A DNA stretch of 64,000 nt, taken from the NCBI GenBank assembly GCA_965197885.1, contig OZ240231.1, positions 192,504-256,503 on the forward strand, given 5' to 3'. This document shows positions 5,719-41,420 of the stretch, one piece after another; the stretch's first letter is position 1; the number at the start of each line of letters is the position of its first letter. The position numbers and the translations under genes are program-made. Source of the DNA: Thermodesulfobacteriota bacterium. GTDB lineage: Bacteria > Desulfobacterota_D > UBA1144 > Nemesobacterales > Nemesobacteraceae. The notes under the pieces are model-generated. The model was not told the origin of the DNA. It saw only the letters and a list, made by a program, of their open reading frames with translations, and did no database searches.

Positions 5719-7053
5719 ATGAAAAACGGCAAACTAGACAAAACGATTCTAAGTGAGAGAATCGAGGAGGCGCTTAAGTATCCGCTTTTCGATTCCATAT
5801 TCAACAGGCGCTCAAGAAGGTTCGGCCTCGGAATGGAGCTTAAAGACAGCACCCTTGAGTTCAAGTCGAATTACGCCCCCGTACCTCTGAGCGAGGTAGA
5901 GGAAGCGCTTTTGGTATGGGCCGGGACGGGGCTCACCGGGCTTTGCCTCGCCGATCTGCCGCCTGAGAACGGGATAGATCTTCTCTGCCAGTGGACGGGA
6001 AGAACCTGGCCTTCTGCGTGCAACAACCACGGAACAGAACTTTTTTTCACAAACGACGACGGACTCTACCACGTGGACGTGAAAAACATGCTCCCCAAGG
6101 AGCATGAGATTGATCTGTTTTTCAAGCTTTCCCGCGAGGAGAAAATCGCGAGGGTTCTCGAACTTTACAGGGAAAGCCTTAACAAGCTTGAGGACGGAAG
6201 GGCCGACATGCCTGACAAGATGCCCGGGCTCTTTGAGTTTAACCAGTGGAACGCCAACAAGCCCGGAACCACGCTTTTCGTTCCCGTCACCGACGTGACC
6301 GAGGAGTACCTGAATCTTCTCACCCTTTACTGCAGTCACACCTACGGATTCACGATTATCGACGATCTTACCGGAAAGCCCGCGGGCGTCGAGAAGTGGG
6401 TGGAAAAGGGCAGATTAAAGGGTGAAATCAAGCTTTCCCTATTTGATCTCGAGGTAAGGATTCTCACGGGACTTAACGTCGAACAGGCCTTTATAACCCA
6501 GAACATGGCGCTTGCCCTTCAGCCTCTGGGGCTTGCGGGATGGGCGTTTACGGGCTTTATTCCGAGGTTTGCCATGGGAGCCGCTCCGAACCTGTTCAGG
6601 GGACTTGGATTTCGATTTATCCAGCCGAAAAAGGGTACGATCGATCCTCCCACCACCGTTCCCGTAGGAAAAGACGGGGTTTTTGAAGCCTACTGTCCGC
6701 CTTACTATAAAAACATGGACGATGCGATCGATCATTTCTTAGCACATAAATGGAAAGCTTGGGAGTCTGACAAGCCTTTCCCGTACACAGAACCCGACAG
6801 GCATCTCATGAAGGCCCCCAAACCCACGGAAACCACCATGCAGATCGTAAGGGATGTAGCGAACTATATTTATGACACTTACGGCAGATTCCCCGCATTC
6901 GTGGACCCCATGTACATGAGGCTTGTGTTTCAGGCGATGCACATAGATCTGGATTTCTACGACAAGTACTACCCGAAAGGTTCTTATTCGGACAGGCATC
7001 TAAGCACTTTTCTTGAGAATCATCCGGACCAGAGAGAACGGTTCGAAAAATAA
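5719..7053 (+). CDS. uncharacterised 444-aa protein, possibly nitroreductase-fold (SagB/ThcOx-like)
   Basis: N-terminal IFNRRSRRFGLG resembles the RRSxRxF signature of nitroreductase-superfamily proteins; the rest was not recognised. Co-oriented, closely spaced with neighbours. Confidence 0.5.
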   Translation: MKNGKLDKTILSERIEEALKYPLFDSIFNRRSRRFGLGMELKDSTLEFKSNYAPVPLSEVEEALLVWAGTGLTGLCLADLPPENGIDLLCQWTGRTWPSACNNHGTELFFTNDDGLYHVDVKNMLPKEHEIDLFFKLSREEKIARVLELYRESLNKLEDGRADMPDKMPGLFEFNQWNANKPGTTLFVPVTDVTEEYLNLLTLYCSHTYGFTIIDDLTGKPAGVEKWVEKGRLKGEIKLSLFDLEVRILTGLNVEQAFITQNMALALQPLGLAGWAFTGFIPRFAMGAAPNLFRGLGFRFIQPKKGTIDPPTTVPVGKDGVFEAYCPPYYKNMDDAIDHFLAHKWKAWESDKPFPYTEPDRHLMKAPKPTETTMQIVRDVANYIYDTYGRFPAFVDPMYMRLVFQAMHIDLDFYDKYYPKGSYSDRHLSTFLENHPDQRERFEK

Positions 7054-7105
7054 TATCGGCTTGCGGAGAAGCAAACTCGGCTTGCGGTAAGGAAGGAAAC
7101 CAGCC

Positions 7106-8380
7106 ATGCGCGTAGCGATTATCGGAAATGGGGTGACCGGGGTCGCAGCCGCCCTGCGCATACGCAAGCTGCAGCCCGACTGGGAGATCGTCATGATCTC
7201 GGGGGAATCTTCCTTTCACTATTCCCGCCCGGCGCTCATGTACATATTCATGGGTCACATGAGCTACGGGGACACCAAGCCCTACGAAGACAGTGTCTGG
7301 CGGAAAAACCGCATTGATCTGTTAAGGGGCTGGGTTACCGAGATTGATGCCGCCGGAAAAAAACTCATCATGCACGAAAAAGATTCCGTTGCGTTCGATA
7401 AGCTGCTTATCGCCACGGGATCAAAGTCCAACAAGTTCGGGTGGCCCGGTCAGGACCTTAAAGGCGTCCAGGGCCTCTACAGCCTTATGGATCTCAGGCT
7501 TCTTTACGAGAATGTAAAAGGCGCCCGAAGCGCCGTTATAGTCGGGGGAGGACTCATTGGAATTGAGTTTGCCGAGATGCTTCACTCACGCAATATCCAC
7601 GTTACTTTCCTGGTGAGGGAGCAGTCCTACTGGACGAATGTCCTTCCGATGGAGGAATCTCGGATGATAAACCGTGTGATCACCGAACAGGGGATTGATC
7701 TCAAGCTCACCACGGAACTTAAGGAAATAGTAGGGGACGATTCGGGAAGAGTACGGGGAGTTATGACTAATAAAGAGGAATTTATCGAAGCTCAGGTCGT
7801 CGGACTCACCGCGGGAGTAAGTCCCAACACCGCCCTTGCAAAGGCAAGCGATATAAAGACGGGGAGAGGGATACTGGTCGACTGGAGCTTCAGAACGGAT
7901 ATCCCGGATGTGTTTGCCGCGGGGGACTGCGCCGAGATAGTCACGGAAGGGGAGGGGAGGAACCTGATTCAGCAGGTCTGGTATACGGGCAAGAGCCAGG
8001 GAAGAGTGGCAGGAGAGGCTATAGCCGGAAAGCCAAGCGTTTATGACCCTGGAATATGGTATAACTCCGCAAAGTTTTTTGATCTCGAATACCAGACTTA
8101 CGGTACCGTGAGAAACGTTCCATTTGAGGAGGAAACCAATTTTTACTGGGAACACCCTGATCATAAGCGTTCCATAAGGATTGTTACCAGTGGTGAAGTG
8201 GTTTGCGGTATAAACGTCATGGGTCTTCGCTACAGTCACAGGGTCTGCGAGAGGTGGGTAGCGGAGAAAAGGTCCCTTGATTACGTGCTTGACAATCTTG
8301 GGGAGGCCAATTTTGATCCCGAGTTCTACGAAAAATGCGAAACGGAGATAATAAAGGAGATAAGGAAACAGGCTGCCTGA
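7106..8380 (+). CDS. FAD-dependent pyridine nucleotide-disulfide family oxidoreductase (ferredoxin/rubredoxin reductase-like)
   Basis: Two Rossmann dinucleotide motifs (VAIIGNGVTGVAAA and VIVGGGLIGIEFAE) and GDCAEI near the C-terminal third; no N-terminal redox-active Cys pair, so not CoA-disulfide reductase type. Confidence 0.8.
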   Translation: MRVAIIGNGVTGVAAALRIRKLQPDWEIVMISGESSFHYSRPALMYIFMGHMSYGDTKPYEDSVWRKNRIDLLRGWVTEIDAAGKKLIMHEKDSVAFDKLLIATGSKSNKFGWPGQDLKGVQGLYSLMDLRLLYENVKGARSAVIVGGGLIGIEFAEMLHSRNIHVTFLVREQSYWTNVLPMEESRMINRVITEQGIDLKLTTELKEIVGDDSGRVRGVMTNKEEFIEAQVVGLTAGVSPNTALAKASDIKTGRGILVDWSFRTDIPDVFAAGDCAEIVTEGEGRNLIQQVWYTGKSQGRVAGEAIAGKPSVYDPGIWYNSAKFFDLEYQTYGTVRNVPFEEETNFYWEHPDHKRSIRIVTSGEVVCGINVMGLRYSHRVCERWVAEKRSLDYVLDNLGEANFDPEFYEKCETEIIKEIRKQAA

Positions 8381-9774
8381 TGGAACAGAACACGACAGAT
8401 TACGATTTCGACGAAGAAACCCTGGGTTTTGAGGAACCGGAGAAAGCTCCGGCCACGCCGCTTGGCAACGGAGAAAAGCTTTCTCTTGCCGTCTTGGGAT
8501 TCGGAATATTGATGTTTGCGCTGCAGGCGCTGGGTATGCCTCCGGGCGGCACCTGGGCCGGGTTTCTCCTGGTCTTCCTTCCCGTTCTCTTCGGTACGGC
8601 GTTTTACTTCTACCTTGATTTCAAAGGCACCGTCCCGGGGATCAAGCATGATAACATCTACTTCAGGGGAATAACTTCCCGGGGAGCTCTGGGCTGGCTT
8701 ATAGGCGTGGTGTTTACCGGTTTCTACATAGCGCTTTACTGGTTTCCCGAATACCTGGCGGGGGGAATAAGTATTGTAAACCCGCTTTCAATTGCCCTTT
8801 CCGGTTCTCCGGCTAACAACTGGTTTTTCTACGGTTTTCTCTACACCGTAGCAGTTTTTATTTTCGGCATAAGAATGTTCATGAAATACAGGAATAACCG
8901 CTACCAGAAGATAAGAACGGCTTCGGTTATGTTCTTCCAGCTCGGGTTCGCCTTTCTCATCCCAAACATACTTATGCTGTTTAACCAGCCCGAGTTTTAT
9001 CTTAGCTACTTCTGGCCGCTTAAACCCGAATACCTGTTCCCGGGCACTTTAAGCTATTTTGTGAATCATCCCGGCGGTCTCGGGATGTTCCTTATTTTCT
9101 GGGGAGCCGTGATGACTTTTGTGGGCACTCCGCTGCTTACCTACTATTTCGGCAAGAGGTGGTACTGCTCGTGGGTGTGCGGATGCGGAGGGCTTGCGGA
9201 AACCATGGGGGACCCGTGGAGACAGCTCTCTGACAAATCGAAAAAGGCGTGGCGCTTTGAGCGCTGGATAGTACATTCCGTACTGGTGTTTATCGTCGTT
9301 ACAACGGTTCTTCTCTGGATTAACTCCGCGACCTCGGGAGCGGTGTTCGGAGAAGCGTCGATGTCTCTTAAGAAGTGGTACGGGTTCTACATCGGGGCCA
9401 TTTTCTCGGGGGTTATCGGCGTTGGTTTCTACCCCATGATGGGAGCCAGGGTGTGGTGCCGGTTCGGTTGCCCGATGGCGGCTGTGCTCGGGATTTTCCA
9501 GAGGTATCTCTCAAGATTCAGAATTACCACAAACGGCGACCAGTGCATGTCATGCGGGAACTGTTCCACCTACTGCGAGATGGGCATAGACGTCAGGGCT
9601 TACGCCCAGAAGGGCGAGAACATAGTGAGAGCGTCATGCGTCGGATGCGGAGTGTGCTCAGCCGTGTGTCCCAGGGGAGTGCTTAAGCTTGAAAACGGGG
9701 GGACTTTCAAGGACAGGTTCTCCGGGTCGGACAAGCCGCTTGGGGCGCTTATGGATTCGCTCAAACACGTTTAG
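8381..9774 (+). CDS. polytopic membrane polyferredoxin (NapH/MauN-like 4Fe-4S binding protein)
   Basis: Multiple TM helices; CSWVCGCGG motif; two C-terminal 4Fe-4S motifs (CMSCGNCSTYCEMG and CVGCGVCSAVCPRG). Start taken at the ATG right after the upstream stop at 8378-8380 rather than the track's 8335. Confidence 0.75.
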
Positions 9775-10014
9775 CTTTAAGGGAAGGACAGACTAAATAA
9801 GCCTCTGGCAATCAAAATAGTCTGTGGCACAGCACATTACGAGCGTCTCTCGTTCGCTTTCTTCGTGTAGAGTGACTTAAATCGATCCGCACTCTTGATA
9901 ACCAGATCTCTAGGGCTGAGTTGTTTTCCATAGTACGGAGAGAATCATAATCTGCCAAAAGTGTCGCATTCGGAGTTAATGGGAACCATTACCCGAAAAA
10001 ATGCTTATAAAGAA

Positions 10015-11286
10015 TTATCGACATCTTCCACCGGCATGTTCAAAGGCGGTGTTGCAATCGTGAACTCCACGACCCGCATGATCGCAGTCAAGCAGTCTTT
10101 CTTCAGTGCCGTTACAGGCTACATCGTCCAGCAAGAAACTGGTTGGCCCGGTGGTGGTTGTTGATGGCGACATGCTAAGAATAGGCTGCGCCCCTCTTGC
10201 GTCGAACATCTGGTCACACGCGACATCTACATCATAATTCCCCCATTCATCGTCACATATTCCCTTCCATTCCATATCCGTACTGTCATATATTTCAAAT
10301 CTACCTATCTTTTCATTCGCCCCTCCCACTAACCGAAGGTGGCCGTCGAAATAATCAGTATCCTCTTCACTGGGACTGGACCCCAGAGTAACCTCTTCCC
10401 CCGGATGGCTTTGGATCTTTTCTGAATTACCGGCACTATCCATGAAGCTTGCCTTCACCTTGATCTTTTTACCGAAATCTTCACGCCCGATAACATAGGT
10501 GGAATTTGCCGCGCCGGAAATATCGGACTCGTTATTAAGATTGTTAATCAGATGATTAACCCTTACCCACTCATAGCTGAAAGTTACATCCGTCGGAATC
10601 TCGTTGTCGTCCTCTATGTCCGAGACGTCCGCAGTCAGCGTCTGCCCGACCTCGTATTCACCCGTGATTGTCATGAGGCCGGCGGCGGTAGAGTTAGCGC
10701 TGCTGTCTGGAGCGGCACACCTGACGTGAAAATACTCTTGATTGAAGCAAATGTGAACTCCACGTCCTCCATGCCTGCAGTCAAGCAGCTTTCTCTCCGA
10801 ACCCGCGCATTCAAGATCGCTTAGTTCCATCCCCGGCACATTGCGTTGTACGGATGCAGGCGGTGTCCCATGGATGTAGTCATATGTCGTCGTCCCTCCC
10901 AAATAACCTAGCTGACGACATATAACCTCTGCCTCTTCAGTAGCGTACCGGCTATCTTCTATACCATCATCGCATATTCCCTTCCATTCCCCGGTACCGT
11001 CGCCATCCTCATCATCAAATATCTGAGGTCTGCCCGAGTAATCTGTTGAAACAGTGTCAAGTGAGTTTGTTTCCACCAATCGAAGATCGCCATCGCTATC
11101 GTCGGCGCTGGATAGAACTGGACCTCCCAGCAGTAAAAACCCTAGCAGCAGTACCGCCGCCATCGGGCAACCACGCAAGATGTCAAGAATCTTGGCCACC
11201 ACTCCCCCGCGCACACGCAAACGCGTCGCTTCATCATTCATATTTTCAGAACGGATTACCGATTTCCCTAAGCCTGTTTCTAACAT
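10015..11286 (-). CDS. secreted protein with two SRCR (scavenger receptor cysteine-rich)-like domains flanking a central beta-sandwich-like domain (paralog 1)
   Basis: DLRLVE...GRPQIFD...WKGICDDGIED...EAEVICRQLGY...LECAGSERKLLDCRHGGRGVHICF...VRC and HLRLVGG...GRFEIYD...WKGICDDEWG...VACDQM...VACNGTEERLLDCDHAGRGVHDC match the SRCR consensus. Signal peptide MAAVLLLGFLLLGGPVLSSA. Start chosen at the ATG with an AAGGAGG SD (11286). Confidence 0.8.
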   Translation of the reverse strand: MLETGLGKSVIRSENMNDEATRLRVRGGVVAKILDILRGCPMAAVLLLGFLLLGGPVLSSADDSDGDLRLVETNSLDTVSTDYSGRPQIFDDEDGDGTGEWKGICDDGIEDSRYATEEAEVICRQLGYLGGTTTYDYIHGTPPASVQRNVPGMELSDLECAGSERKLLDCRHGGRGVHICFNQEYFHVRCAAPDSSANSTAAGLMTITGEYEVGQTLTADVSDIEDDNEIPTDVTFSYEWVRVNHLINNLNNESDISGAANSTYVIGREDFGKKIKVKASFMDSAGNSEKIQSHPGEEVTLGSSPSEEDTDYFDGHLRLVGGANEKIGRFEIYDSTDMEWKGICDDEWGNYDVDVACDQMFDARGAQPILSMSPSTTTTGPTSFLLDDVACNGTEERLLDCDHAGRGVHDCNTAFEHAGGRCR

Positions 11287-11941
11287 TTTAGAGCCTCCTT
11301 TAAAAACACAACCGATGGCTAGCACTGCCTAGTCACTCCTAGTTTATTCTACTTCCCCACCTTGACCGCTGTCAAGTGGAGAAAGTGTAGGAACCATAAA
11401 TTCAGGCTTCTTGGTCTTGCAGACTGTGGAAGTACCGAGCGTAAAGCAGCAAAAATGTGGATAACGTCTTAAGTTTTTCGCAAATTTAAAAGGGAAGGAA
11501 GACGGCATTCCTTTATAAATCCGGCTAGATAAACAGTGCTCCCCAATTTATTTAACGGGAGGAAACACCGCCATCAGCAATTATACGACGAAGAGCCCCA
11601 AAAAGGTAATTCAGATAAACGAGAAGGAGCCTAGGCTTCACTTAAGCTCCCTTGTGACGGATGCTGAACAATCCTATGGAGGAAATTATCCATGAGATCA
11701 GGAGGCGGCCCCGGGTGGTTGAAGCTTTCCCCGATGGACAGAAAGGAGATAATTGAGGTAAGACAGCAAGATCAGATCAGATTTTTCAGGTTCGGAGACT
11801 CATGAGTCTTTGAACCTGAAACTGAAGAAACGCCAAAAACCCAGATTTGCGAAAAATTCCGAGCGCTGGCCTTTGCTGAGAACAGTTTCAGTGATGTCAT
11901 TTCTCAGTTCTTAGGAGAACCGAAGCGATTTCCCTGAACAT

Positions 11942-12397
11942 TCAGATACGGAGAAATCCAACGGATTTCATGCTTTCTTTGCTTCCGCGGTCAATTCTCT
12001 CGACCACCTCGCCGCTCTTTATGTCAAAAACGAAACAGGATATTCCGGAAAGTATCTCTAGGTTAAACTCCAGGAAATTGTTTACGTACATCTTGGAGTC
12101 TTCAATCGTTTCCTTGGGATCGGCTTTATCCGGGTTTCTTACGAGAATGAAATACGCGCACAGAAAATCCGGAAGGTCAGCGTTATGGGCGAATACAGCT
12201 TTTGAATCGTATTTCAGGATTACATTCTGGTTGAAATAGCGCTGGTATCCGGCGATTAGCGGCTGGTTCAGATGAGAGAGGGCGTAAACGATCGCGCAGG
12301 CGATTTTGTCCTGGTTCTCAATCATGAAATCAAGCGATTCCTTGTTGAACCCCTCGAGTGTTATTTCCGGTTTTTCCTTGTTTCGTGGTTCTCGCAT
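11942..12397 (-). CDS. hypothetical protein (151 aa)
   Basis: Intact ORF downstream of rny on the same strand; no recognisable motif. Confidence 0.5.
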   Translation of the reverse strand: MREPRNKEKPEITLEGFNKESLDFMIENQDKIACAIVYALSHLNQPLIAGYQRYFNQNVILKYDSKAVFAHNADLPDFLCAYFILVRNPDKADPKETIEDSKMYVNNFLEFNLEILSGISCFVFDIKSGEVVERIDRGSKESMKSVGFLRI

Positions 12398-12485
12398 TTC
12401 TTCCTCCTTCAGCAGTTCCCGCTTCCCGGTCTGTTTTTAAGTGCCGGTGTAATATACCACAAAGATCCCGCGTTTGGCGTGTTTT

Positions 12486-14041
12486 CTATGAAGCGTACGC
12501 CGTCGCCCTGCTTTCCCTTATGACCATGATTTTTATCTGTCCCGGATAAACGACCTCTTCTTCTATCTTCTTGGCTATTTCATGCGAGAGAATTGCTCCC
12601 TCCTCATCGCTTACCTGATCGCTTTCCACTATCACCCTTACCTCTCTTCCGGCCTGAATCGCATAGCATCTTTCAACGCCCGGAAAAGAACTCGCGACGC
12701 CTTCTATGCTCTCGATTCTTTTTACGTAGTTTTCATACGTTTCCCTCCTCGCTCCGGGGCGGGCAGCGGAAATAGCGTCGGCTGCCTGAACGAGAAGCGG
12801 CAGAACTCCCTGGGGCTGCGGGTCATGGGTTTTTTCAAGCGCGTCGATGATCTCAGGGGGCTCGCCGTATTTTTTGACGATATTAGTCCCTATGTCCACG
12901 TGGGAACCTTCAACTTCGTGATCAATCGCTTTTCCTATATCGTGGAGCAGGCCGGCCCTTTTCGCGAGCTTTTCGTCGTAGCCGATTTCAGAGGCAAGCA
13001 TTCCGCAGATAAATCCCACTTCAATCGAGTGGTTGAGTATGTTCTGCGAGTAGCTTGTTCTGTATTTAAGCATCCCGAGCTTGCTTATCAGGTCCGGATG
13101 CATGCCGCTTATGCCGAGGTCAAAAAGCGCTTTTTCCCCTTCTTTCTGTATTTCCTTTTCTACTTCCTTTTCAACCTCGGTTACCACTTCCTCAATCCTT
13201 GCGGGATGAATTCTCCCGTCAGCTATCAGCCGCTCAAGCGAAATTTTCGCCACTTCCCGCCTTATGGGATTAAAGCACGAAATCACGACCGTCTCGGGCG
13301 TGTCGTCGATAATGATGTCCACCCCGGTGCGAAGCTCTATGGAGCGGATGTTCCGTCCTTCTCGCCCGATAATCCTTCCTTTTACGTCGTCGCTTGGAAG
13401 ATTGACTACCGACACCGTTTTCTCGCTTGTGTATCTGCCGGAATATCTCTGAATGGCAAGAGATATGATATCCTTTGCCTTCCGCTCGGCGGCGGAATTG
13501 CACTCTTCCTCTATATACTTGAGTTTTTAGCCGCTTCGTGTCTCGCCTCATTTTCTACCAGGCTTACGAGTTCCGCTTTTGCCGCTTCGCGGGTAAGGCC
13601 TGATATCTCCTCTATTTTTCCCTTTATATCTTCAATGTTCTCATCAAGAGTCCTCTGCTTTTTTTCGGCGGCCAGATTCTTGCTTTCGAGTTCCGCCTGC
13701 ATTTCTTCAAGCGCCGCCTCTTTTTTATCAATCTCCTCGTATTTCATGCTGAGGCCATCTTCCCTAGCTTTGAGTTTCTTCTCGGTGGCAGAGAATTCCC
13801 TGCGTTTCTCACTCGACGTTCTCTGCATCTGGGAATTTTTGTCCTTGACGAGTTTCTTCGCCCTGTTCTCCGCCCTGTTTCTTACCTCTTCTGCTTTCTT
13901 CTCGGCCTCTTCGATTATAATCCGGGCCTGGTCCCGGCTTTTACGGACCCTGTTTTTTTCCATAACCATCCTGTAGATGAAATGGGCGGCGAATCCAAGC
14001 CCGAAGAGCAGTAAAAACCATAATGTTGATTGTACTTGCAT
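12486..14041 (-). pseudogene. rny: ribonuclease Y, reading frame broken by a 1-nt shift in an A5 (coding-strand) homopolymer at 13524-13528; may be a sequencing artefact
   Basis: ORF 13511-14041 encodes the TM plus coiled-coil N-terminus ending ...EARHEAAKNSSI*. ORF 12486-13415 encodes the KH and HD domains (VVNLPSDDVKGRIIGREGRNIR...LLHDIGKA). Inserting one A in the gctaaaaactc run gives the continuous read AAKKLKYIEEECNSAAERKAKDIISLAIQRYSGRYTSEKTVSVVNLPSDD, which matches the RNase Y linker. Confidence 0.7.
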
Positions 14042-14042
14042 T

Positions 14043-14816
14043 TCAGTCTCCTTCTTTTCCCAGACAGTCGATTGCTCCGTCTTCGGTGATTATGCGACCC
14101 GTCTTCACGTCGGTTTCTTGCGAAGGGATGCTTTTTAGCACTTGGAACCGGTAAGCCAGTCCGAAGCGGACCTGCCTGGGTATATCTTTTAAAAACCTGT
14201 CATAAAAACCTTCTCCGTACCCTATTCTGTTTCCGGAAAAGTCAAAAGCCACTCCCGGCACGAGCACGAGGTCAAGTTCATCGCTTCGGGCACGCTCGGT
14301 GTCCGCCGGGGGCTCGGGGATGGCGAAAGCACCGGGGGTAAGTTCCTCAATATTCCTTGTTCTTAGAAAAACAAGGTTAGAACCTAGGGTTTTTGGAAAA
14401 AAAACTTTTTTTTCAAGATCGATGCATTTTTTGAATATTCCACGGGTATCGACTTCGCCGTTTACGGGGAAATAAAGAGCGACGCTCGATGCATTGGCAA
14501 AAGCCTTTTCTGAAAGAAGAACCTTGAGGATCAGGCCGGATTTTTCCTGGAGGAGAGATTGAGGAAGGTTTTTTCTTTTCTCGAGAAGGTCTCTTCTCAG
14601 CTTTTCCTTTTTCTCAAGGATTAAATCCCCTGAGCTGGCTCCCAGGGAACTGTCTACGGATGTGGGGCCGGAGTGGGTCTCAGAAGTTGTTTCCTCTTGA
14701 TTTGAAAGGATCTTCGGGGCTTTCTTCAAGAAGGAGGGGTTCTTTCTGGCTTCCGGGTGATTCGAGCAGTCCGACCAGTTCTTCTGTTTTTCTTTTCGCG
14801 GTTCTCTTGAATTCAT
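14043..14816 (-). CDS. 5-formyltetrahydrofolate cyclo-ligase; start uncertain
   Basis: C-terminal LDLVLVPGVAFDFSGNRIGYGEGFYDRFL is the 5-FCL signature. The only in-frame ATG (14816) gives a roughly 70-aa low-complexity N-terminal extension overlapping zapA; the true start is probably further downstream at a non-ATG codon. Confidence 0.6.
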   Translation of the reverse strand: MNSREPRKEKQKNWSDCSNHPEARKNPSFLKKAPKILSNQEETTSETHSGPTSVDSSLGASSGDLILEKKEKLRRDLLEKRKNLPQSLLQEKSGLILKVLLSEKAFANASSVALYFPVNGEVDTRGIFKKCIDLEKKVFFPKTLGSNLVFLRTRNIEELTPGAFAIPEPPADTERARSDELDLVLVPGVAFDFSGNRIGYGEGFYDRFLKDIPRQVRFGLAYRFQVLKSIPSQETDVKTGRIITEDGAIDCLGKEGD

Positions 14817-15027
14817 CAAATTCCCTCTGTAATGCGAAGAAATCATCGACTATCTCAAGAGAAGCCAGAAAAACGGGAGGGGAGACGGTTATCAATACAT
14901 CGTCTCCAGCTGCTTTGGTGATTTTTTGTTCAAGATAATTTACAATATGCATTAGGTAATCTTTTTCGGCGTCCGTGACTACGGAATATTCCTTGCCGAA
15001 GAAAACTACTTTTATCCTGTCTTTCAT
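14680..15027 (-). CDS. zapA: cell division protein ZapA
   Basis: MKDRIKVVFFGKEYSVVTDAEKDYLMHIVNYLEQKI...VFLASLEIVDDFFALQRE fits the ZapA pattern (V.I.G..Y....D.......L...........A.LN...E). Confidence 0.7.
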   Translation of the reverse strand: MKDRIKVVFFGKEYSVVTDAEKDYLMHIVNYLEQKITKAAGDDVLITVSPPVFLASLEIVDDFFALQREFDEFKRTAKRKTEELVGLLESPGSQKEPLLLEESPEDPFKSRGNNF

Positions 15028-15233
15028 ACCGACTCTTCGCCAAGATGCTGTTCGATTGTCCGTATCATGGTGTCGACGCGTGTTCTAAGACGCTCTTTTT
15101 CGGCTTCAAGCGAGGCAACATTTCCTCTGAGCATCTTAATTTCTTCCAGCAATCTGTTGTGTTCTTCAGTCGTTTTGGCGTTTTCGTCTACAAACTCTCT
15201 GATTTTTCTCTCAAGAATCTCTAATGATTCCAT
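15024..15233 (-). CDS. ZapB-like coiled-coil cell division protein
   Basis: 69-aa coiled coil MESLEILERKIREFVDENAKTTEEHNRLLEEIKMLRGNVASLEAEKERLR, immediately upstream of and overlapping zapA by 4 nt. The track ORF extends further upstream into a non-coding region. Confidence 0.5.
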   Translation of the reverse strand: MESLEILERKIREFVDENAKTTEEHNRLLEEIKMLRGNVASLEAEKERLRTRVDTMIRTIEQHLGEESV

Positions 15234-15435
15234 AATAGGCGTAAATTGTATCACTATGATGAAATTATTACAAGAATCACGCTCGAAGAGGCGCTTTCGG
15301 TGATAGAGGGGGGTTTGGCCCACTCCGGGTTTGAAGTTACGGGGTTTCGCACTGAAAATGATCAGATTTACGTCGCCTACGAACCACTGTTTGCTAGCTC
15401 CACTTTCGTCAAGCCGGAGGTGAGGGTGGAATTCG

Positions 15436-15464
15436 GTGCGGGCCCGCCGGACCCGCACCTGGCG
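15436..15464. repeat. GC-rich dispersed repeat fragment (GCGGGCCCRCCGRACCCGCACCTGGCGCT), second copy at 40564-40592
   Basis: Near-identical 29-mer seen at both loci; both lie in short ORF fragments encoding ...AGPP[DN]PHLAL..., suggesting remnants of the same degraded gene or mobile element. Confidence 0.6.
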
Positions 15465-15491
15465 CTTAAGTATTCAGACGCCCGGGCTCCG

Positions 15492-18400
15492 CTACCATCT
15501 GAGGTCGCCCCGGAGCGCCACCGCGTGACTGGAGGGGAGGTCGGGGTTCTCGGTGCGGTCACCCTCAAGGCTGAGGTTAAAGGAGTCGCCGAGCCTAAGG
15601 CGCCATCCCGCCCTGTATCTCCTGTCCCCAGACATGGAGAACCCTCCGTAAGGAGTGATGACTCCTGAGCCCCCAAACGCCCCCATCGCGTAACCCGCCT
15701 CGGCGTCCAGTCGTCCCGGGGCCTGATCGCCTCCTGCAAGCCCCCGCGTATCCCCCATTGCCCAAAGACCCTCAACCCCGCTTGCAGTGGTTCCAACGGA
15801 TGAACCGAGCTTTGCCGAGAATCCCCTCTCCGCTCCCCCTGGAGCGAACTGCAGGGAACCCCCGGCTCCCCATTCTGAGTAGCCGCTTCGCTCATGAGCC
15901 ATGAGCCTTCGCGCTGTAATCTCCACCGTGAGTCCTCTTGAGGGGTTTATGTAGCGCATCGCGCCTCCCATTTCAAAACCCATGCCCCTCTCCGCGTCCC
16001 CTCCGTCTCGTCTCACTCCAAGCTCAACAGACGGGATGAGGGAACTTCCCGAAGCAAATGCAAAGGGTCGGGAACCCTCAAGTACAAGGCGAAGCCTGCT
16101 TACGTCGGCTTCTGTCTCCGTCATCCGGGAGGTTCCCTCTGAAGAGGTTCTCACTAAAAGCGCGTCTGTGCGGGCTGAGATATCAAATCCCCCGGCTGCA
16201 ACCAGGGCGCCCCGGGCCCCGAGGGCCGCCATCTTCATTTCAATATCGGTTTTCTCTCCTCCTCCTTCGTAGGTAAGGGTGAGTTCACCCTTACCGTAGC
16301 CGAGAAGGGTCCAGGCGCTTAAGCGATCGTTTAAGGAGAAGCGAAGGTATGGGTGAGCGCTTGTTATGGAGCTTTTAAGGTCTCCTTTTATATCACCTGA
16401 GTTGTAAGAGCCGTCTCCCGTGCTTCTCGCAAGGGCAAGGCCCAAAAGCACACGGTCCCACGCGCGGTCAACTCCCAGGGTTGCCGTGGTTACGTCTCCG
16501 TCAATTGAGAGGTCGGAATCTCGTCCCGAGAAACTCGTCCGTGCCGCTCCTCCCCACGCCGTCCATCCGGGCCCGGGGTTTTGGGTTGCGTTCTGGGCTA
16601 GGGAAACTTCAAAGGAAGAGCTGAGCAGGAACTCCCGCATCCTGAGGCTATTGAAGTTCTCGGGGCGGCGGTCCTCGGGAACCAGTTCATCCCATGGGGA
16701 TATTTCCGTTATCTCCGTGGCGGGAGGCTCTTTCAGTTCCGCGCCTCCAAGGGTTACTCCGCGTGAGGGCTCTTGGGCGGAGGACATCCTCCCTCTTACG
16801 GCTTCCACAGCGTGGTTTGCCACTGTGCGCCCGAAGCGGGCAAGCCACGCCTTGACGCTCCGCGCCTCCTGGTGGTCGGTCGTCGTGACCATGAACGCCT
16901 GCGTCGCCGTCAGCCCGCCGGGGTCCTGTGCCGTCACCGTCACCGTCGCCGTACCCGGACGCGTCGCGGTCAGCGTCAGCGTCGCGCCGGTGAGGTGCAA
17001 CGCCACTGCCTGATCCGACACGACGGCCGTGTAGTCGAGCGCGTCGCCGTCCCGGTCTGCGAAGAACGGGATCAGATCGAGCGCCACCGGCTCGTCTCCG
17101 ATATCCAGGGTCCGATCGGGGATGACGCCCGCTGCAAGCGGCGGGTCGTTCACCGGCCGCACCGTCACGTCCACCGCCGCCCGGGCCGTCAGTCCCGATC
17201 CGTCGCCCACGACGTAGGTGAAGCTGTCGGTGCCGTGAAAGTCAGGCTCCGGCGTGTACACCACCGCTCCTGTGTCGGTCACCGCCGTGCCGTGCGTCGG
17301 CGCCGATACCTCCACCAGCGCCAGCGCGTCCCCGTCGGGGTCGCTGTCGTTGCTGAGCACGTCGATGGTAACCGGCGTGTCCTCGGGCGTGTCCGCCGCG
17401 TCGTCACCCGCCAGCGGCGGGTCGTCCACCGGCAGCACCGTCACGTCCACCGCCGCCCGGGCCGTCAGTCCCGATCCGTCGCCCACGACGTAGGTGAAGC
17501 GGTCGGTGCCGTGAAAGTCAGGCTCCGGCGTGTACACCACCGCGCCTGTGTCCGACACCACCGCCGTGCCGTGGGTCGGCGCCGATACCTCCACCACCAC
17601 CAGCGTGTTCCTGTCGGGGTCGCTGTCGTTGCCGAGCACGTCGATGGTCACCGGCGTGTCTTCGGGCGTGTCCGCCGCGTCGTCGACCGCCCGCGGCGGG
17701 TTGTTCACCGGCGGCGGCGGGGTCGTCCTGATGCGCCCCGACGGCGACCAGGGACCGGTGCCATCACTATTGGTGGCGCGCACCTGCACCTGGTAGGCGG
17801 TGGGGGCGGCGGTCAGGCCCGCGATCGTGGCGCTGGTGCCGCCCACGCCTTGGGGGCCGGGGGTAAAGTCCCCGCTTGTGCCTTCCCGGTACTGCAGGTC
17901 GTAGCTAGAGATGTCCGGCCGGCCGGTGTTCGAGGGCGCGCTCCAGCTCACCGTCAGGCTGTCGGGCGTGCCGGGGGTCGCCGTGACTCTGGGCGTCGCG
18001 GGCGCCAGCGGCCGCTCGTTGACGTCGTTAGTGAGATCAATCGTCACCGTGACCGTGTCGGTGCCGCCGTTGCCGTCGTCGGCCTTCACGATCACCGTGT
18101 AGCTCGGCGTGGTCTCGTAGTCGTAGGTGACGCCGGGCCTCGTGCGGATCTGGCCGCTGGTCGAGACGATCGAGAACGACGACGCGTCCATGCCGCCCTC
18201 CAGGGTGTAGGTCAGCTGGTCGTTGTTGCCGTCGGTGGCGGTGACGGGGGCGCCGACATCGGTGTTGGCGGGGCTGTTCTCGGCGACGCTACGCGTGGCG
18301 GTCGAGGAGGAGAACGTCGGCGCGGAGTTGCCGGCGGTGTTGGTCTGCCCCGATCCAGACGGCGACCAGGGGCTGTTGCCATCACTATTGGTGGCCCGCA

Positions 18401-20891
18401 CTTGCACCTGGTAGAGGGTGTTCGCGGTTAGGCCCGTGATCGTCGCGCTGGTGCCGGTCTCGTTCTGGGGGCCGTCGATGAAGGTCCCGCTGGTGCCTTC
18501 CCGGTACTGCAGGTCGTAGGTGTCGATGGCGGGACCGGTGTTCGTCGGCGCCGTCCAGGTCACCGACAGGCTGGTGGTGCTGCCGGCGACCGAGGACACC
18601 GAGGGGGCCGCCGGCTGGCCCGGCGGGGTGGGGACGTAGGCGTTGGTCACGGTGGTCGCGGCGCGGGCGAGGTTGCCGTTGCCAGCGGCGTCGTCGACGG
18701 CGTCGGCGGCGAGCGCCACGGTGAGGTTCGTGGCCGAAGCGGTCAGGGCCGTCGTCAGGGTGATTTCGACCTTGGTTCCAACCACGCTCGCCGCGCTCGT
18801 CGCCGCGGTGACGCTGTTGGCCTGGATGGTGATGTCGCTATGACTGACCGCTCCGATGTCCTCGCTGAACACCAGCAACACCGATGCGCCGTTGGCTGAC
18901 GTCGTCGGCGCATCGGTGCCGGTGGTGACGAGCGTCGGGCGGATGCCGTCGACCTTGTGCCCGGCGTCAATGGCGACCGCGGTGTGGTCGAGGGCGGCGC
19001 TGATGGTCGTGCTGCCGGTGGCCGTGATGGTGCCGCTGGTTAGCGTGTTCGCCGCGATCCCGACGCCGTTCGGCGCCGTGTCGCCCACGCCCACCGTGTA
19101 GCTGCACGCCATCGTGGTCGTGTTCATGCCGGTCGCGCAGGTGGCCCCTTTCGCTGTGCCGTCAAAGTCCAGCTCCAGCTCCGGGGTGCCGGTGATGTCG
19201 ACCGCCGCGTCGAAGGTCACCGTCGCCGTGACGGTGTCGCTGATCGCGTAGGTGTTGTCAGTGCCGGGGGTGGAGGTCAGCGCGACCGACGAGACCTCCG
19301 GGCCGTCGGCCGTCAGCGCCAGGCAGACCGCGTAGCCATCGGCCCAGGTGGGGACGTTGCTGTACCAGGAATAGGCGTTCTGGGCGGAGCCGTACAAAGC
19401 ATCCGCCAACTGGTACGTCTGAGTCCCGACGTGAAACACGAGATCGTCCGCGGCGGTCCCGAGTTGCTCAGTGTCTCCGAGGTTGATCTGAAGTTGGACC
19501 GAGTCGACGAATAATGAATCGATTGTGTAGTCGGTGCCACCGAAACTGATCGTTGTGTCATCGAGACTCCCCCCGAAGCTGCTGTAACCGACCGCCAACG
19601 CATTCAGCCTTCCCACGGTCAGGTTTCCCGTCCAGACCTGGTTCGTCATCGAGGCGGCGCTGCACGCGACGGGCACGGCGACGCGAAGCACCCTGACGAT
19701 GTAGGTCTCCGTGGTCGTTGTGTCGGGCGCGGTCACCTTCACCTTGACGGTGTTGGTGCCGACATCGAGGTTGACCTGGAGGCCGGCGGTCATTGTGTCG
19801 GCGTCCGTCAGCGTGGCGTCCGAATCGTCGAGATACTCGACCGTCGCCGTCGTCTCGCTTGTCATCACGGTGATCGTGCTCTGGGTCACCGCATTCGCGA
19901 CCACAGCAAGGTACTCCTCTGGTGTGGTCGTGGCCGTGCCGAACGCCGGGCTAAGCGTCGCGCCGCTCACCGACAGGGCGCTCAGCGTCGCGTCGGTGGC
20001 GTCGCCGACCGTGTTCGCATAGCCAGAGACGATGATGCGAAGCGCCTCGTTGGCCCCGGACTTAAGCATCCAGGTACTGCCGCTCTGCCAGTAGAACTTG
20101 TTTTTGATGCTCCAGTCCGCGAGGCCGAGCGACGTATCTTCTCCGCTGGAGGTGGTGGTGTTGAGCTCCACGCTCGCGGTGCCGCGCTGCGTGACGACCA
20201 CCACGTAGTTGGTGTTCGCCGAGAGGGCGAGGCCGGTGTGCGTGAACGTCGCGATGACCCCGGTCGTGAAGGTCGCCGGCGCCGTCAGGGCCGTGCAGTC
20301 GCCGGCGGTGGTGGATGGAAACTCGTTCGTGGTGCCATCCTCCTCGCAGACCTCGACGTCGAAGGGGTCGTTCTGGGCGTCCTCGGAGTTGACGCGCACG
20401 CTGGTGAGCGTGTAGCCGTTCGTGTTGGCACCCGTGTGGAACAGCTGCGCATGTTTGTTGCCACTGGTGCTGGCGTTGTCATCGGGCCCTTGCGCGGAGT
20501 TGCTCACGAGAATGCGCACCGTCTGCGCCTCCGCCGCGGCCGCCCCGAGGAGCACCAGGCCCAAGACGAGGACGGCGGTGCGGCCTGGACGGGCGTGCCG
20601 CAGGGCGGCACAGCCAAGAAGGAGCACGGCAAGGGCACGCAGTCCGCGCGCGAGGGACGAAAGCGGTTGGGTGGCTTGGGGTCGGGCGGCCGGGCTTCTT
20701 TTGCCCGAAGACCGCGCCCCGGCGGGGACGACGGAAGGCAGCTTGGCCGGGGAGGCCGAATTCAGGCGATAATCTCGGCTCCGTGTATTACAAAAATGGG
20801 GGGGGGGTAGCGCAAAGGATAGTTCTGGAATCCTCCGCGGAATCCATGGCTCTTCCCGGAATATCGCAGCCGGATGATACGGTGAAATCAA
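15492..20891 (-). CDS. giant autotransporter (type Va) adhesin, 1799 aa, with Ig-like, cadherin-like, FN3 and approximately 93-aa tandem repeat passenger domains
   Basis: C-terminal roughly 450 aa has the alternating hydrophobic pattern of an autotransporter beta-barrel and ends in ...LRGDLRW. FN3 domains (LSVTWTAPTNTGPAIDTYDLQYREG...YQVQVRATNSDG). Cadherin-like domain (ATDGNNDQLTYTLEGG...IDLTNDVNERP). Repeats of the TYTPEPDFHGTDSFTYVVGDGSG type. GC content is markedly higher than the flanks (GCC/GGC/GTC-rich codons). The annotated start is a TTG; see the phase-variation finding. Confidence 0.85.
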   Translation of the reverse strand: MISPYHPAAIFREEPWIPRRIPELSFALPPPHFCNTRSRDYRLNSASPAKLPSVVPAGARSSGKRSPAARPQATQPLSSLARGLRALAVLLLGCAALRHARPGRTAVLVLGLVLLGAAAAEAQTVRILVSNSAQGPDDNASTSGNKHAQLFHTGANTNGYTLTSVRVNSEDAQNDPFDVEVCEEDGTTNEFPSTTAGDCTALTAPATFTTGVIATFTHTGLALSANTNYVVVVTQRGTASVELNTTTSSGEDTSLGLADWSIKNKFYWQSGSTWMLKSGANEALRIIVSGYANTVGDATDATLSALSVSGATLSPAFGTATTTPEEYLAVVANAVTQSTITVMTSETTATVEYLDDSDATLTDADTMTAGLQVNLDVGTNTVKVKVTAPDTTTTETYIVRVLRVAVPVACSAASMTNQVWTGNLTVGRLNALAVGYSSFGGSLDDTTISFGGTDYTIDSLFVDSVQLQINLGDTEQLGTAADDLVFHVGTQTYQLADALYGSAQNAYSWYSNVPTWADGYAVCLALTADGPEVSSVALTSTPGTDNTYAISDTVTATVTFDAAVDITGTPELELDFDGTAKGATCATGMNTTTMACSYTVGVGDTAPNGVGIAANTLTSGTITATGSTTISAALDHTAVAIDAGHKVDGIRPTLVTTGTDAPTTSANGASVLLVFSEDIGAVSHSDITIQANSVTAATSAASVVGTKVEITLTTALTASATNLTVALAADAVDDAAGNGNLARAATTVTNAYVPTPPGQPAAPSVSSVAGSTTSLSVTWTAPTNTGPAIDTYDLQYREGTSGTFIDGPQNETGTSATITGLTANTLYQVQVRATNSDGNSPWSPSGSGQTNTAGNSAPTFSSSTATRSVAENSPANTDVGAPVTATDGNNDQLTYTLEGGMDASSFSIVSTSGQIRTRPGVTYDYETTPSYTVIVKADDGNGGTDTVTVTIDLTNDVNERPLAPATPRVTATPGTPDSLTVSWSAPSNTGRPDISSYDLQYREGTSGDFTPGPQGVGGTSATIAGLTAAPTAYQVQVRATNSDGTGPWSPSGRIRTTPPPPVNNPPRAVDDAADTPEDTPVTIDVLGNDSDPDRNTLVVVEVSAPTHGTAVVSDTGAVVYTPEPDFHGTDRFTYVVGDGSGLTARAAVDVTVLPVDDPPLAGDDAADTPEDTPVTIDVLSNDSDPDGDALALVEVSAPTHGTAVTDTGAVVYTPEPDFHGTDSFTYVVGDGSGLTARAAVDVTVRPVNDPPLAAGVIPDRTLDIGDEPVALDLIPFFADRDGDALDYTAVVSDQAVALHLTGATLTLTATRPGTATVTVTAQDPGGLTATQAFMVTTTDHQEARSVKAWLARFGRTVANHAVEAVRGRMSSAQEPSRGVTLGGAELKEPPATEITEISPWDELVPEDRRPENFNSLRMREFLLSSSFEVSLAQNATQNPGPGWTAWGGAARTSFSGRDSDLSIDGDVTTATLGVDRAWDRVLLGLALARSTGDGSYNSGDIKGDLKSSITSAHPYLRFSLNDRLSAWTLLGYGKGELTLTYEGGGEKTDIEMKMAALGARGALVAAGGFDISARTDALLVRTSSEGTSRMTETEADVSRLRLVLEGSRPFAFASGSSLIPSVELGVRRDGGDAERGMGFEMGGAMRYINPSRGLTVEITARRLMAHERSGYSEWGAGGSLQFAPGGAERGFSAKLGSSVGTTASGVEGLWAMGDTRGLAGGDQAPGRLDAEAGYAMGAFGGSGVITPYGGFSMSGDRRYRAGWRLRLGDSFNLSLEGDRTENPDLPSSHAVALRGDLRW
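17151..17709. repeat. intragenic tandem duplication (approximately 279-bp period) inside the autotransporter gene
   Basis: caccggc[ca]gcaccgtcacgtccaccgccgcccgggccgtcagtcccgatccgtcgcccacgacgtaggtgaagc... occurs at about 17151 and again at about 17431 with more than 95% identity. Confidence 0.85.
20798..20807. repeat. G10 homopolymer (C10 on the coding strand) in the 5' region of the autotransporter gene; candidate slipped-strand phase-variation tract
   Basis: Ten consecutive G at 20798-20807. It encodes PPP/PPH in two overlapping frames (see finding). Confidence 0.9.
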
Positions 20892-21305
20892 GCATTGTTC
20901 GAAAACCTCCGTAGGGAATCAGCTTCTTTGGGAGTATAACATACACCGACCGGTTATACCAAGTCATTTTACGCCGCAAGGATTTTTTGGTTCCGATTTC
21001 CGCAGCGATAGCGGGACCGGCACGGCATCGGCCCGCATTCCGGCAATCTGACGGTCATGCTGCCTGATTCAGACAGAATACGGCATCGATTCCCGCGGAA
21101 CCGGCAATCCTCACCGACCAGCGGACGCAGCAACCCCTTCAGGGTTGCCTGCAGCTAAAATTGTTTTGCTTGATTCAAGCTTCAAAGAGAAGTACTGGGT
21201 AAAAAGTTTTTCGCCCCCTGCGAAAACCCTTGCTCTATATGCGTATACTCAACAGCGTAAATGCCTCTCGAAGCGTCTATACACGGAGTCGCAAAGACGA
21301 TTTTT

Positions 21306-21335
21306 TTTACATTTTGAGAACTTTTTGTCTATAAT
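21306..21335 (+). promoter_or_regulatory. putative sigma70 promoter upstream of prfA (TTTACA - 18 nt - TATAAT)
   Basis: tttaca at 21306-21311 and tataat at 21330-21335, 8 nt before the prfA ATG (near-leaderless). Confidence 0.4.
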
Positions 21336-34780: not shown

Positions 34781-36037
34781 CTAGTTCGAACATCTGACTT
34801 TAGCATACTCCGGTCTCCATGAGCTACAATCGTGCACCCCACGGGTTCCATGCTCACAATCAAGCAGTTCATCTTCACCCCCATCGCATACCACCTCGTC
34901 AAGCAAGAAAGTTCTGGGTGCACTAATTCCTGATGAGTGTAGGGTTGGAGACGGGGTGTTTCCCGAGAAGCCTAACTGACTACACACGACCCCTGCCTCT
35001 TCTGACCCCCATCCGCTGTTAGCACATACCGACTCCCATCCTGTACCATCGCCATCGTCGGTTTTGCCATCGAATATTTCAACTCTGCCTTCAAGCTCAT
35101 TAACTCCTGCCGCCAGTCGAATCCGGCCGTCGTAGTTCGCAGCATCAGCAGCACTAACAGGGCCCGTTACCCGGCTTCGTACCTCTTCTTTATTTCCGGT
35201 GGGGGTAGCTTCATCGGTGAAACTCAGTTCAAGCTTGATACTTTTACCGAAATCCGCATCTGCAAGAACATAAGTGGAACTTGTCCCCCCGGAAATCTCA
35301 GTCTCGTTATCATCAGTATTAAGTCGGGTATTAACCCTGACCCACTGATAACTGAAGGTTGACGTCGCCGGAAGACCGTCGTCGTCCTCTATGTCCGAGA
35401 CGTCGGCGGTCAGAGTCTGCCCCACCTCCAGAGTGCCCGTGATTCCCAGCAGACCTTTGGCGGTGGAACTGGCACCTGACTCACAAGCAACTGTGAATAT
35501 CTCTCCATTGTAGCAATTATGCTTATCACGTCCTCCGTGCTCACAATCAAACACTCTTTTTTCCGAACCCGTGCACAGCAGATTGTCTATTACCATGTCG
35601 GGAAAATTCGCTGACACGCCTGAATCATAGGAAACGTCGTGAGTTATCTCTCCTCCCGAACACCCTAGCTGGCGGCATATTACGGCTGCTTCTTCTTTAG
35701 ACACATCATGTGAAAGTAAGCCATCATCACATATCCCCCTCCACGTGCCGTTCCCGTCATTATCCGGCTCATTGAATATCTCCGTCCTGCCCTCTCCTGA
35801 GCAAGCTGCTGTTCCTGTCACAACCGTGCCCGTCGCATCTAGTCTCCTTAATCGAAGGTCGCCGTCGGACTGCGCATTTACCTCCGCAGAACCTCCCAGC
35901 AGCAAAAACAGCAGTGACGCTACCAAGAGGGGTTTGCTCAAGAAATCCAAGGCTTTTATGATCCCCGTCCCGTGCGAGCAAACCACGCTGTTACTGTTAA
36001 AAAGCCTTCCAGGTTTCGTTAAGTATTTTTCCATCAT
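34781..36037 (-). CDS. secreted tandem-SRCR-like domain protein (paralog 2)
   Basis: Same architecture as paralog 1: DGDLRLRRLDATGTVVTG...GRTEIFN...WRGICDDGLLSHDVSKEEAAVICRQLGCSGG...LLCTGSEKRVFDCEHGGRDKHNC; central ITGTLEVGQTLTADVSDIEDDDGLPA domain; second SRCR ...WESVCANSGWGSEEAGVVCSQLG...VVCDGGEDELLDCEHGTRGVHDC. GAAGGAGG SD upstream of the ATG at 36037. Confidence 0.8.
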   Translation of the reverse strand: MMEKYLTKPGRLFNSNSVVCSHGTGIIKALDFLSKPLLVASLLFLLLGGSAEVNAQSDGDLRLRRLDATGTVVTGTAACSGEGRTEIFNEPDNDGNGTWRGICDDGLLSHDVSKEEAAVICRQLGCSGGEITHDVSYDSGVSANFPDMVIDNLLCTGSEKRVFDCEHGGRDKHNCYNGEIFTVACESGASSTAKGLLGITGTLEVGQTLTADVSDIEDDDGLPATSTFSYQWVRVNTRLNTDDNETEISGGTSSTYVLADADFGKSIKLELSFTDEATPTGNKEEVRSRVTGPVSAADAANYDGRIRLAAGVNELEGRVEIFDGKTDDGDGTGWESVCANSGWGSEEAGVVCSQLGFSGNTPSPTLHSSGISAPRTFLLDEVVCDGGEDELLDCEHGTRGVHDCSSWRPEYAKVRCSN

Positions 36038-41319: not shown

Positions 41320-41420
41320 CTTCCACAAGGATGCGTAGAACCCGTCTGCTTCCTCATACAGTCGCGGAGGAAATTCATTTCTGTGAAACGCCGAAATGAG
41401 GACTCAACCGGCCGGCAAGT

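Follow-up and report, generated by a model that had tools for sequence, protein, structure and literature searches.

In a 64-kb stretch of DNA from a Thermodesulfobacteriota bacterium (64,000 nucleotides of contig OZ240231.1, hereafter the window) we analysed the long open reading frame (ORF) at 15492-20891. With a probability of about 0.72, its product is a surface adhesin some 1,711 amino acids (aa) long with type V topology, and the gene is a recombinant of a resident leader and barrel with a passenger of high GC content. An earlier note made from the sequence alone (the original prediction) had described the gene as a GC-rich type Va autotransporter, recently acquired as one adhesin module by a lower-GC backbone. 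The strong GC excess stands, both in windowed GC and in GC at third codon positions (GC3) compared with 34 host ORFs, while the acquisition itself has to be redrawn. The predicted protein would run from a Sec signal peptide through a rod of beta-sandwich domains (choice-of-anchor-R-like, cadherin-like, fn3, cadherin, tandem-95/Big_9 and PKD-like, in this order) and an alpha-helical linker to a C-terminal outer-membrane barrel with an aromatic beta-signal.

The whole ORF has a GC content of 0.66 against about 0.50 in the remaining window. In 300-bp windows it stayed at 0.61-0.73, compared with 0.42-0.56 in its immediate flanks, and outside the adhesin every other 1-kb bin (58 kb) lay at 0.45-0.56. 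GC3 of the whole gene was 0.81 (0.41-0.65 in neighbouring genes), and GC at first (GC1) and second (GC2) codon positions was raised too. As the host reference for GC3 we used 34 non-overlapping ORFs, each of at least 250 aa, which gave 0.563 +/- 0.050 with a range of 0.48-0.68. Against these, codons 89-1345, comprising signal peptide and passenger, showed a GC3 of 0.896 (z +6.7), and codons 1346-1799, comprising linker and barrel, 0.619 (z +1.1). In 60-codon windows GC3 dropped from 0.90 at codons 1291-1350 to 0.63 at 1351-1410, the switch falling within about 10 codons of the linker. At the other end, codons 1-88 of the maximal ORF and 350 bp upstream of it were host-like, with a GC of about 0.53. 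The adhesin gene is thus a compositional mosaic and not a uniform foreign unit. Its parts are as follows.

15492-20891, minus strand: maximal ORF of the adhesin, 1799 codons from TTG, stop TAG at 15492-15494, frame intact
20892-21245, minus strand: conserved 5' leader/promoter region, GC about 0.53, 98% identical to positions 6183-7060 of the related locus L081
20798-20807, minus strand: homopolymer of ten C (C10) in the leader, the sole G/C run of at least 8 in the 64-kb window
20526-20627, minus strand: likely start GTG (20627-20625) and putative Sec signal peptide, (V/M)LLLGCAALRHARPGRTAVLVLGLVLLGAAAAEA|QT, read from sequence
20052-20480, minus strand: choice-of-anchor-R-like N-terminal domain, aa 138-280 (NCBIfam NF041539, E 3e-14)
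19683-19985, minus strand: cadherin-like beta-sandwich domain, aa 303-403 (Pfam PF12733)
18600-19682, minus strand: passenger segment without family assignment, aa ~404-764
18357-18599, minus strand: fn3 domain 1, aa 765-845 (Pfam PF00041)
18033-18290, minus strand: Cadherin domain, aa 868-953 (Pfam PF00028, E 2e-7)
17737-17974, minus strand: fn3 domain 2, aa ~973-1052 (Pfam fn3, second stretch)
17130-17712, minus strand: tandem-95/Big_9/Cadherin_5 repeats, aa ~1062-1254 (Pfam and NCBIfam; Tandem Repeats Finder, TRF)
16887-17069, minus strand: PKD/Ig-like domain beside the linker, aa 1275-1335 (Pfam PF00801, E 3e-6)
16779-16865, minus strand: linker helix ARSVKAWLARFGRTVANHAVEAVRGRMSS, aa ~1343-1371, with the GC3 switch and the recombination junction
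15846-16565, minus strand: 12-strand autotransporter-like beta-domain unit, aa 1443-1682, ending WGAGGSLQF
15495-15824, minus strand: conserved C-terminal extension with six further predicted strands, aa 1690-1799 (AlphaFold2, AF2, with DSSP; pLDDT ~88-94)

The relatives of the gene divide along the same lines. Relatives of the C-terminal 442 aa, 88-98% identical, were found on several metagenome contigs with Big_9 or Calx-beta passengers. In the relatives P0005-P0007 and at locus L082 the same barrel (88-91%) is carried on Calx-beta passengers, joined exactly at KAWLARFGRT, and L082 has the barrel alone in common with the window (91%). Locus L081 showed 92-98% DNA identity across window 15438-21245 in another genomic context, where it is bordered by purA-hisS-serA-AMP ligase and, at the opposite end, by HepT/MNT, AbiEii, HipA and a transposase. 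Beyond this group the barrel proteins were 40-54% identical, and DNA matches to barrel and leader were restricted to related backbones of about 0.50-0.55 GC. On the other hand, the N-terminal 636 aa of the passenger found relatives of 60-87% identity on contigs of 1-7 Mb. Three such high-GC loci were fetched and compared, namely L084 (4.93-Mb circular contig, locus GC 0.63), L085 (6.99-Mb circular contig, 0.69) and L086 (955-kb contig, 0.65). Their DNA aligned with the window from 20605 to about 18620 at 82.7-87.9% identity (L084 87.9% over 1.8 kb, L086 84.2% over 2.0 kb, L085 82.7-84.9%). Within 19500-19799 L084 reached 93.3% over 300 bp, against 87.7% over 188 bp for the conspecific contig L088 and 85.4% over 185 bp for L081, and the block of aa 413-552 was just 44% identical to L081. 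Since the sampled flank genes of the high-GC genomes had a GC3 of 0.78-0.88 and their adhesin genes 0.87-0.89, the composition of the passenger is native to such genomes. Compared with the window protein, that of L086 was 73% identical in the passenger and 40% in the barrel (GC3 of the L086 barrel 0.87), and the barrel of a further locus, L083, was 46% identical. The E1-beta dehydrogenase subunit of L086 is 85-89% identical to named Gemmatimonadales/Gemmatimonadetes proteins, and PrfA of the window is 77-79% identical to PrfA of Thermodesulfobacteriota metagenome-assembled genomes (MAGs). From these passenger and barrel identities and taxonomic matches it follows that the passenger cassette is common across phyla, each lineage having its own barrel.

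We therefore argued for the following course of events. The leader and the linker-barrel part, with host-like codons and recurring at identities of at least 90% with different passengers in related backbones, are the resident component, and a passenger cassette of high-GC composition (GC3 0.90) lies between them. This unit occupies the interval from a zapB-like gene to prfA, a slot of variable content, and has carried a fragment of an AbiEii gene with it. The insert, present also in conspecific contigs, is still diverging there by segmental replacement. By analogy with type V biology the protein would be exported by Sec, its barrel inserted with the help of the beta-barrel assembly machinery (BAM), and the passenger threaded and displayed with its C-terminal end first. 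Export would probably be driven by sequential folding of the beta-sandwiches, as proposed for inverse autotransporters, and the rod, stiffened by Ca2+, might present its N-terminal domain to a host or matrix ligand. Linkers of the Ca2+-binding type, DxNDxP, are seen in the adhesin sequence. All assigned passenger domains are beta-sandwiches (Pfam, NCBIfam), and the passenger of FN3, cadherin-like and approximately 93-aa tandem repeat domains named by the original prediction was recovered by Pfam, NCBIfam and TRF. The TRF repeat has a unit of 279 bp in 2.1 copies (about 93 aa each) at 17137-17712 with 92% matches, and fn3 domain 1 forms a DNA repeat pair of 78.6% with 17737-17974. The most recombinogenic stretch of the passenger was 19358-19799.

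The stretch upstream of the ORF (20892-21300), which had been taken for gene-free, proved to be a leader conserved at 98% identity in L081, and the shared homology stops sharply at about window position 21244. A promoter scan placed a sigma70-like site at 20962-20933, and the start of an upstream ORF, GGAGG-ATG (ATG at 20895-20893), lies out of frame with the main ORF. The leader was not found in the high-GC loci by DNA comparison, and Rfam returned only sub-threshold chance matches on it. A repeated motif, GATTGCCGG...GATGCCGT, was noticed in the leader at 21000-21130 on the minus strand, and comparison of loci shows stronger conservation in the leader (97-98%) than in the coding region. The C10 run separates GGAGG-ATG from the main frame, and one C fewer would join both frames. 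Phase variation through this run was considered and found no support, as no length difference was seen among three loci (window, L081 and P0127 frame). Roughly the first 88 codons of the maximal ORF probably belong to the 5' leader. The putative signal peptide has a basic n-region and a hydrophobic core, and its h-region and AEA|QT are kept in homologues of other genomes. The conserved motif ...RPARPGR-AVLVLGLLLLGAAAAEA|QT is a plausible Sec signal. Homology to other genomes starts at residue 96, and the match to the high-GC loci at 20605.

As predicted before, a barrel domain lies at the C-terminus and the protein ends in W (...LRGDLRW). In the AF2 model of this domain (87-sequence alignment; pLDDT 83.9, pTM 0.76) a helix, placed by DSSP at aa 1359-1371 of the linker, was followed by 17-18 strands, a low-confidence insert of 55 residues separating the helix from strand 1. 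When the 12-strand unit was modelled alone (aa 1419-1687), AF2 returned 12 strands with a pLDDT of 90.7 and a pTM of 0.83. Its best 20 Foldseek matches in the PDB were all type Va beta-domains (E ~1e-7, template modelling (TM) score 0.6-0.7), with EspP, BrkA, EstA, Hbp, NalP and AIDA-I at the top. The extension beyond it terminates in a beta-signal-like ...HAVALRGDLRW-stop, the final RW being kept in the family consensus. For the C-terminal 442 aa the single model match was OMP_b-brl with 19 bits (cut-off 28.7) and E 1.4e-3, while 9 of 10 scanned homologues, 40-48% identical, passed the PF03797 gathering score of 26 with 35-60 bits. Because the homologues pass PF03797 while the window protein fails, the autotransporter homology is transitive, and membership would follow from homologues and predicted fold. 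The 360-aa C-terminal domain occurred in 7,640 cluster representatives (50% identity), 3,546 of them at E<=1e-30, and the best 150 representatives all cover positions 1-360 at their own C-termini, in proteins as long as 4,888 aa. The adhesin belongs to a large, uncharacterised autotransporter-related subfamily. Of the type Va assignment, the layout, the homologues and the fold were upheld and a direct PF03797 match was not, and about 18 strands are predicted where the classical number is 12.

Several points weigh against our reading. The C-terminal 442 aa were matched by neither PF03797 nor TIGR01414 at E<=10, and no PDB autotransporter was returned by sequence or profile search, the profile search having matched only Calx-beta columns supplied by homologues. 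Foldseek matches of the full model of about 18 strands mixed autotransporters, TonB-dependent receptors and LptD, and the barrel may have a topology other than classical type Va. A beta-helix, typical of type Va though not obligatory, is absent from the passenger. The start codon is uncertain, the main frame having no in-frame ATG and C10 lying between the ribosome-binding site with its ATG and that frame. Which way the passenger was transferred is inferred from composition alone, and function as an adhesin and expression are predictions from sequence. The backbones of L081 and L082 have a GC3 of about 0.65 and may represent related species, not the same genome. Within 15275-21332 there was no integrase or recombinase, no att site and no target duplication.

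In a possible, though doubtful, alternative the protein is no self-translocating autotransporter. The C-terminal domain would be a larger outer-membrane anchor or pore of about 18 strands and of a distinct class, distantly related to autotransporter barrels, and passenger export would differ from that of classical type Va proteins. A conserved extension of 110 aa past a complete 12-strand unit, which itself ends in a beta-signal-like ...SLQF, would fit such an anchor, as would the all-beta-sandwich passenger, the missing direct match to PF03797 and a full model that resembles 22-strand receptors about as well as autotransporters. The first 12 strands, however, are autotransporter-like by homology and fold, and the linker helix directly upstream and the arrangement of N-terminal signal and C-terminal barrel are those of type Va. 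Truncation to the 12-strand unit gave a gain in TM score to BrkA (0.68-0.70 vs 0.59-0.61 for the full model) that is too slight to tell 12 strands from 18, and an internal duplication relating the extension to strands 7-12 found only a weak hhalign match (E 1e-3, probability 21%). Mean-field direct coupling analysis (266 sequences, effective number Meff 140) scored 0.446 for pairing of strands S1-S12 and 0.364 for S1-S18 over a non-adjacent background of 0.27 +/- 0.11, and did not separate the two closures.

The following features were located at the insertion site and at the recurring fragment.

15275-21332, no strand: the insert as a whole, compared with the two nearest relatives at species level (blastn synteny with L001 and L003)
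15435-15459, minus strand: GC-rich 3' hairpin with an 11-bp stem, 33 nt past the stop codon
15285-15440, plus strand: remnant of an AbiEii toxin gene, 52 codons corresponding to aa 125-176 of a 342-aa protein
40549-40720, minus strand: degenerate 3' end of an adhesin-family gene, with last codons (TAG to CAG), hairpin region and a 48-bp insertion

Synteny comparison confirmed that the locus is inserted relative to the two nearest species. The insert occupies the interval between prfA and the zapB-like gene, which probably starts at ATG 15233. The alignment with L001 breaks at window 15274 and restarts at 21333, and that with L003 breaks at 15234 and restarts at 21382. In the same slot L001, a genome of 0.60 GC, has a HindIII-type restriction-modification pair of low GC (0.41-0.50; positions 8040-9914), and L003 has a 437-aa gene with repeats-in-toxin (RTX)/collagen repeats. 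Foreign DNA has integrated in the zapB/prfA slot repeatedly. The ends of the insert are without flanking direct repeats, and the 64-kb window is without a tRNA. Debris at the flanks was present as predicted. The downstream stretch, likewise called gene-free, contains the AbiEii pseudogene fragment, which is 79% identical (tblastn, E 2e-21) to an intact gene lying 1.4 kb downstream of the L081 adhesin. As the remnant matches this intact neighbour, the unit derives from an arrangement like that of L081 and has since lost about 1.4 kb. The recurring GC-rich fragment was also verified (15438-15466 = 40572-40600, 29 bp, 93%, E 1.5e-5). Through L081 the recurring match lengthens to 40549-40600, within the degenerate 3' end, which is situated upstream of an SRCR-domain gene, with an IS481-like gene nearby. 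The hairpin was considered as a genome-wide repetitive extragenic palindromic (REP) element and rejected, the 28-nt motif occurring only behind adhesin genes (L081, L087, L088).

Of the two conspecific contigs, L088 spans both insert junctions in one contig, and the 3' junction with the AbiEii scar is also covered by L087. In both, the flanks match the window at 95-100% identity, and the adhesin at 79-99% per 500-bp bin. The shared insert shows that the insertion is older than the split between these variants, with remodelling of the passenger going on. The acquisition cannot then be called very recent, as two conspecific contigs share insert and scar. Nor is the event unique, barrels of at least 90% identity occurring in other contexts of related backbones. 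These results bear on the view that the whole 5.4-kb gene, barrel included, is one foreign module recently acquired from a GC-rich donor. The absence of the whole unit from the slot in L001 and L003, the contrast of 0.66 to 0.50 in GC and the debris at the flanks would agree with it. We consider it unlikely, as barrel and leader have a GC3 of 0.60-0.62, within the host range and unlike the 0.87-0.88 of barrels in high-GC genomes, and their DNA matches only backbones of about 0.50-0.55 GC, besides the insert being shared by the conspecific contigs. Horizontal acquisition, as originally predicted, thus holds for the passenger and not for a single foreign module.

In the high-GC genomes the related adhesin genes lie among mobile-element genes. 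In L084 and L085 a GerE regulator and a divergent tyrosine recombinase precede the adhesin and ArdC comes after it, and L085 has in addition the type IV secretion system genes TrbC, VirB3, VirB4, TraG, CagX and TrbI. This arrangement is the layout of an integrative and conjugative element (ICE). In L086 the adhesin is followed by the excisionase AlpA and an integrase, in an island that splits a 2-oxoacid dehydrogenase operon. Overall, tyrosine integrases stand beside the adhesin in L084-L086 and conjugation genes were present in two of the three (L084, L085). It may be noted that the L084 adhesin is split at 12104-16825 by a 4.7-kb insert with MerT/HMA and an Arm-type integrase, window homology restarting exactly where the insert broke it. 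Also, the common order of GerE regulator, divergent 323-327-aa tyrosine recombinase and adhesin (L084 6701-12121, L085 6772-12805) could be an invertible-promoter switch, or simply the integrase end of an ICE. A further alternative does without any gain between lineages, the passenger having become GC-rich in situ, by GC-biased gene conversion between repeats and paralogues or through an amino-acid composition rich in T/A/G/D/V/P, and having later been given to high-GC genomes. The multi-copy family with its evident segmental recombination and the raised GC1 and GC2 would agree with this. It is nevertheless very improbable, since amino-acid composition cannot explain a GC3 of 0.90, the passenger GC3 fits the native 0.78-0.88 of the high-GC genomes, where the genes adjoin integrase and ICE genes, and the barrel of the same gene, likewise multi-copy, keeps the host GC3.

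That contigs of two organisms were joined into a chimera at the GC-rich gene, a possibility raised with the original prediction and suggested by the metagenomic source, by a frameshift in rny at about 13526 of the window and by related contigs ending inside or near the adhesin, has a negligible chance of being true and is excluded by the two conspecific contigs, as L088 covers prfA, adhesin and zapB-like gene in one contig (79-100% per 500-bp bin), L087 independently crosses the 3' junction with the AbiEii scar, both flanks are syntenic with L001 and L003, and the 1799-codon ORF is intact.

Some other observations were made in the window. The RNase Y gene rny (12486-14041, minus strand) has its frameshift beside an A5 run and is intact (518 aa) in the conspecific L087. 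The choice is between an indel of the assembly and a strain-specific pseudogene, and homopolymer lengths in the window are therefore not to be trusted. Eukaryote-type SRCR-domain genes occur at two or three places (10015-11325 and 38730-40448, both on the minus strand, and about 35234-35575). The first lies in a 2.2-kb segment (9775-11960) missing from L001, and L003 has an RTX/collagen-repeat gene there. An EVE-domain gene and an IS481-like helix-turn-helix gene at 40906-42771 adjoin the degenerate 3' remnant, which suggests another rearranged patch of mobile DNA. A 5S rRNA gene closes the window (63733-63848, plus strand; Rfam, 86.9 bits). Poribacteria MAGs occur among the prfA matches, and these, together with the eukaryote-like cadherin, fn3 and SRCR genes, suggest a host-associated community.

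If the recombinant origin of the adhesin holds, the locus would be a clean natural case of cross-phylum modular adhesin evolution, in which the anchor module is inherited and the binding rod swapped, with the recombination breakpoint readable directly in codon composition. In a host-associated community, should that setting be correct, it would show a way for unrelated symbionts to arrive at a common host-binding surface. Furthermore, a six-strand extension in a barrel family of thousands, joined to solely non-beta-helical passengers, raises the question of how beta-sandwich rods cross the outer membrane. A wider picture may be drawn, which we hold to be rather unlikely as a whole. It would make these proteins a very large, uncharacterised type V-like branch, whose 12-strand core has been widened by six strands (to about 18) for long beta-sandwich rods of cadherin, fn3, Big_9 or Calx-beta domains. 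ICE-borne passengers would be traded across phyla within one host-associated community, and recombination at the linker helix would attach them to the translocator that each lineage already has, as a community-wide 'plug-in' adhesin system.

Among known systems the adhesin may be compared with type Va proteins (AIDA-I, Ag43, BrkA, EspP), which it resembles in signal peptide, passenger, helical linker, C-terminal barrel and terminal aromatic residue, as well as in the best PDB matches of its 12-strand unit and in homologues that pass PF03797. It departs from them in having a chain of cadherin, fn3 and Big_9 domains in place of a beta-helix, six extra predicted strands and the 55-residue insert after the helix, and in failing PF03797 itself. 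With type Ve proteins (intimin, invasin) it shares an outer-membrane barrel displaying an Ig-like/Big rod, and sequential beta-sandwich folding as the drive of export, as in type Ve, would be plausible. However, the type Ve barrel is N-terminal while that of the adhesin is C-terminal, and the adhesin is without LysM or a periplasmic domain. The extender domains are those of the RTX adhesins of type I secretion systems (T1SS; LapA, SiiE, FrhA, MpIBP), that is tandem-95/VCBS-like, Big_9 and cadherin-like, with Calx-beta in paralogues, and the same set is found in the BapP family of Pseudoalteromonas tunicata (PMC12153261). In contrast to these, the window adhesin carries a predicted Sec signal at its N-terminus and a barrel at its C-terminus, and neither RTX nonapeptide repeats (HemolysinCabind) nor a C-terminal T1SS signal were found in it with Pfam. 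Diversification of passengers at strain level by recombination and horizontal transfer has been described in Fusobacterium (PMC10995627), and the same strain-level adhesin diversification in Campylobacter (PMC7168839) and for Bartonella BadA (PMC8859334). Unlike in these pathogen mosaics, the exchange here spans phyla, between Thermodesulfobacteriota-like and Gemmatimonadota-like backbones, with a sharp breakpoint of codon composition at the linker and each lineage keeping its own barrel.

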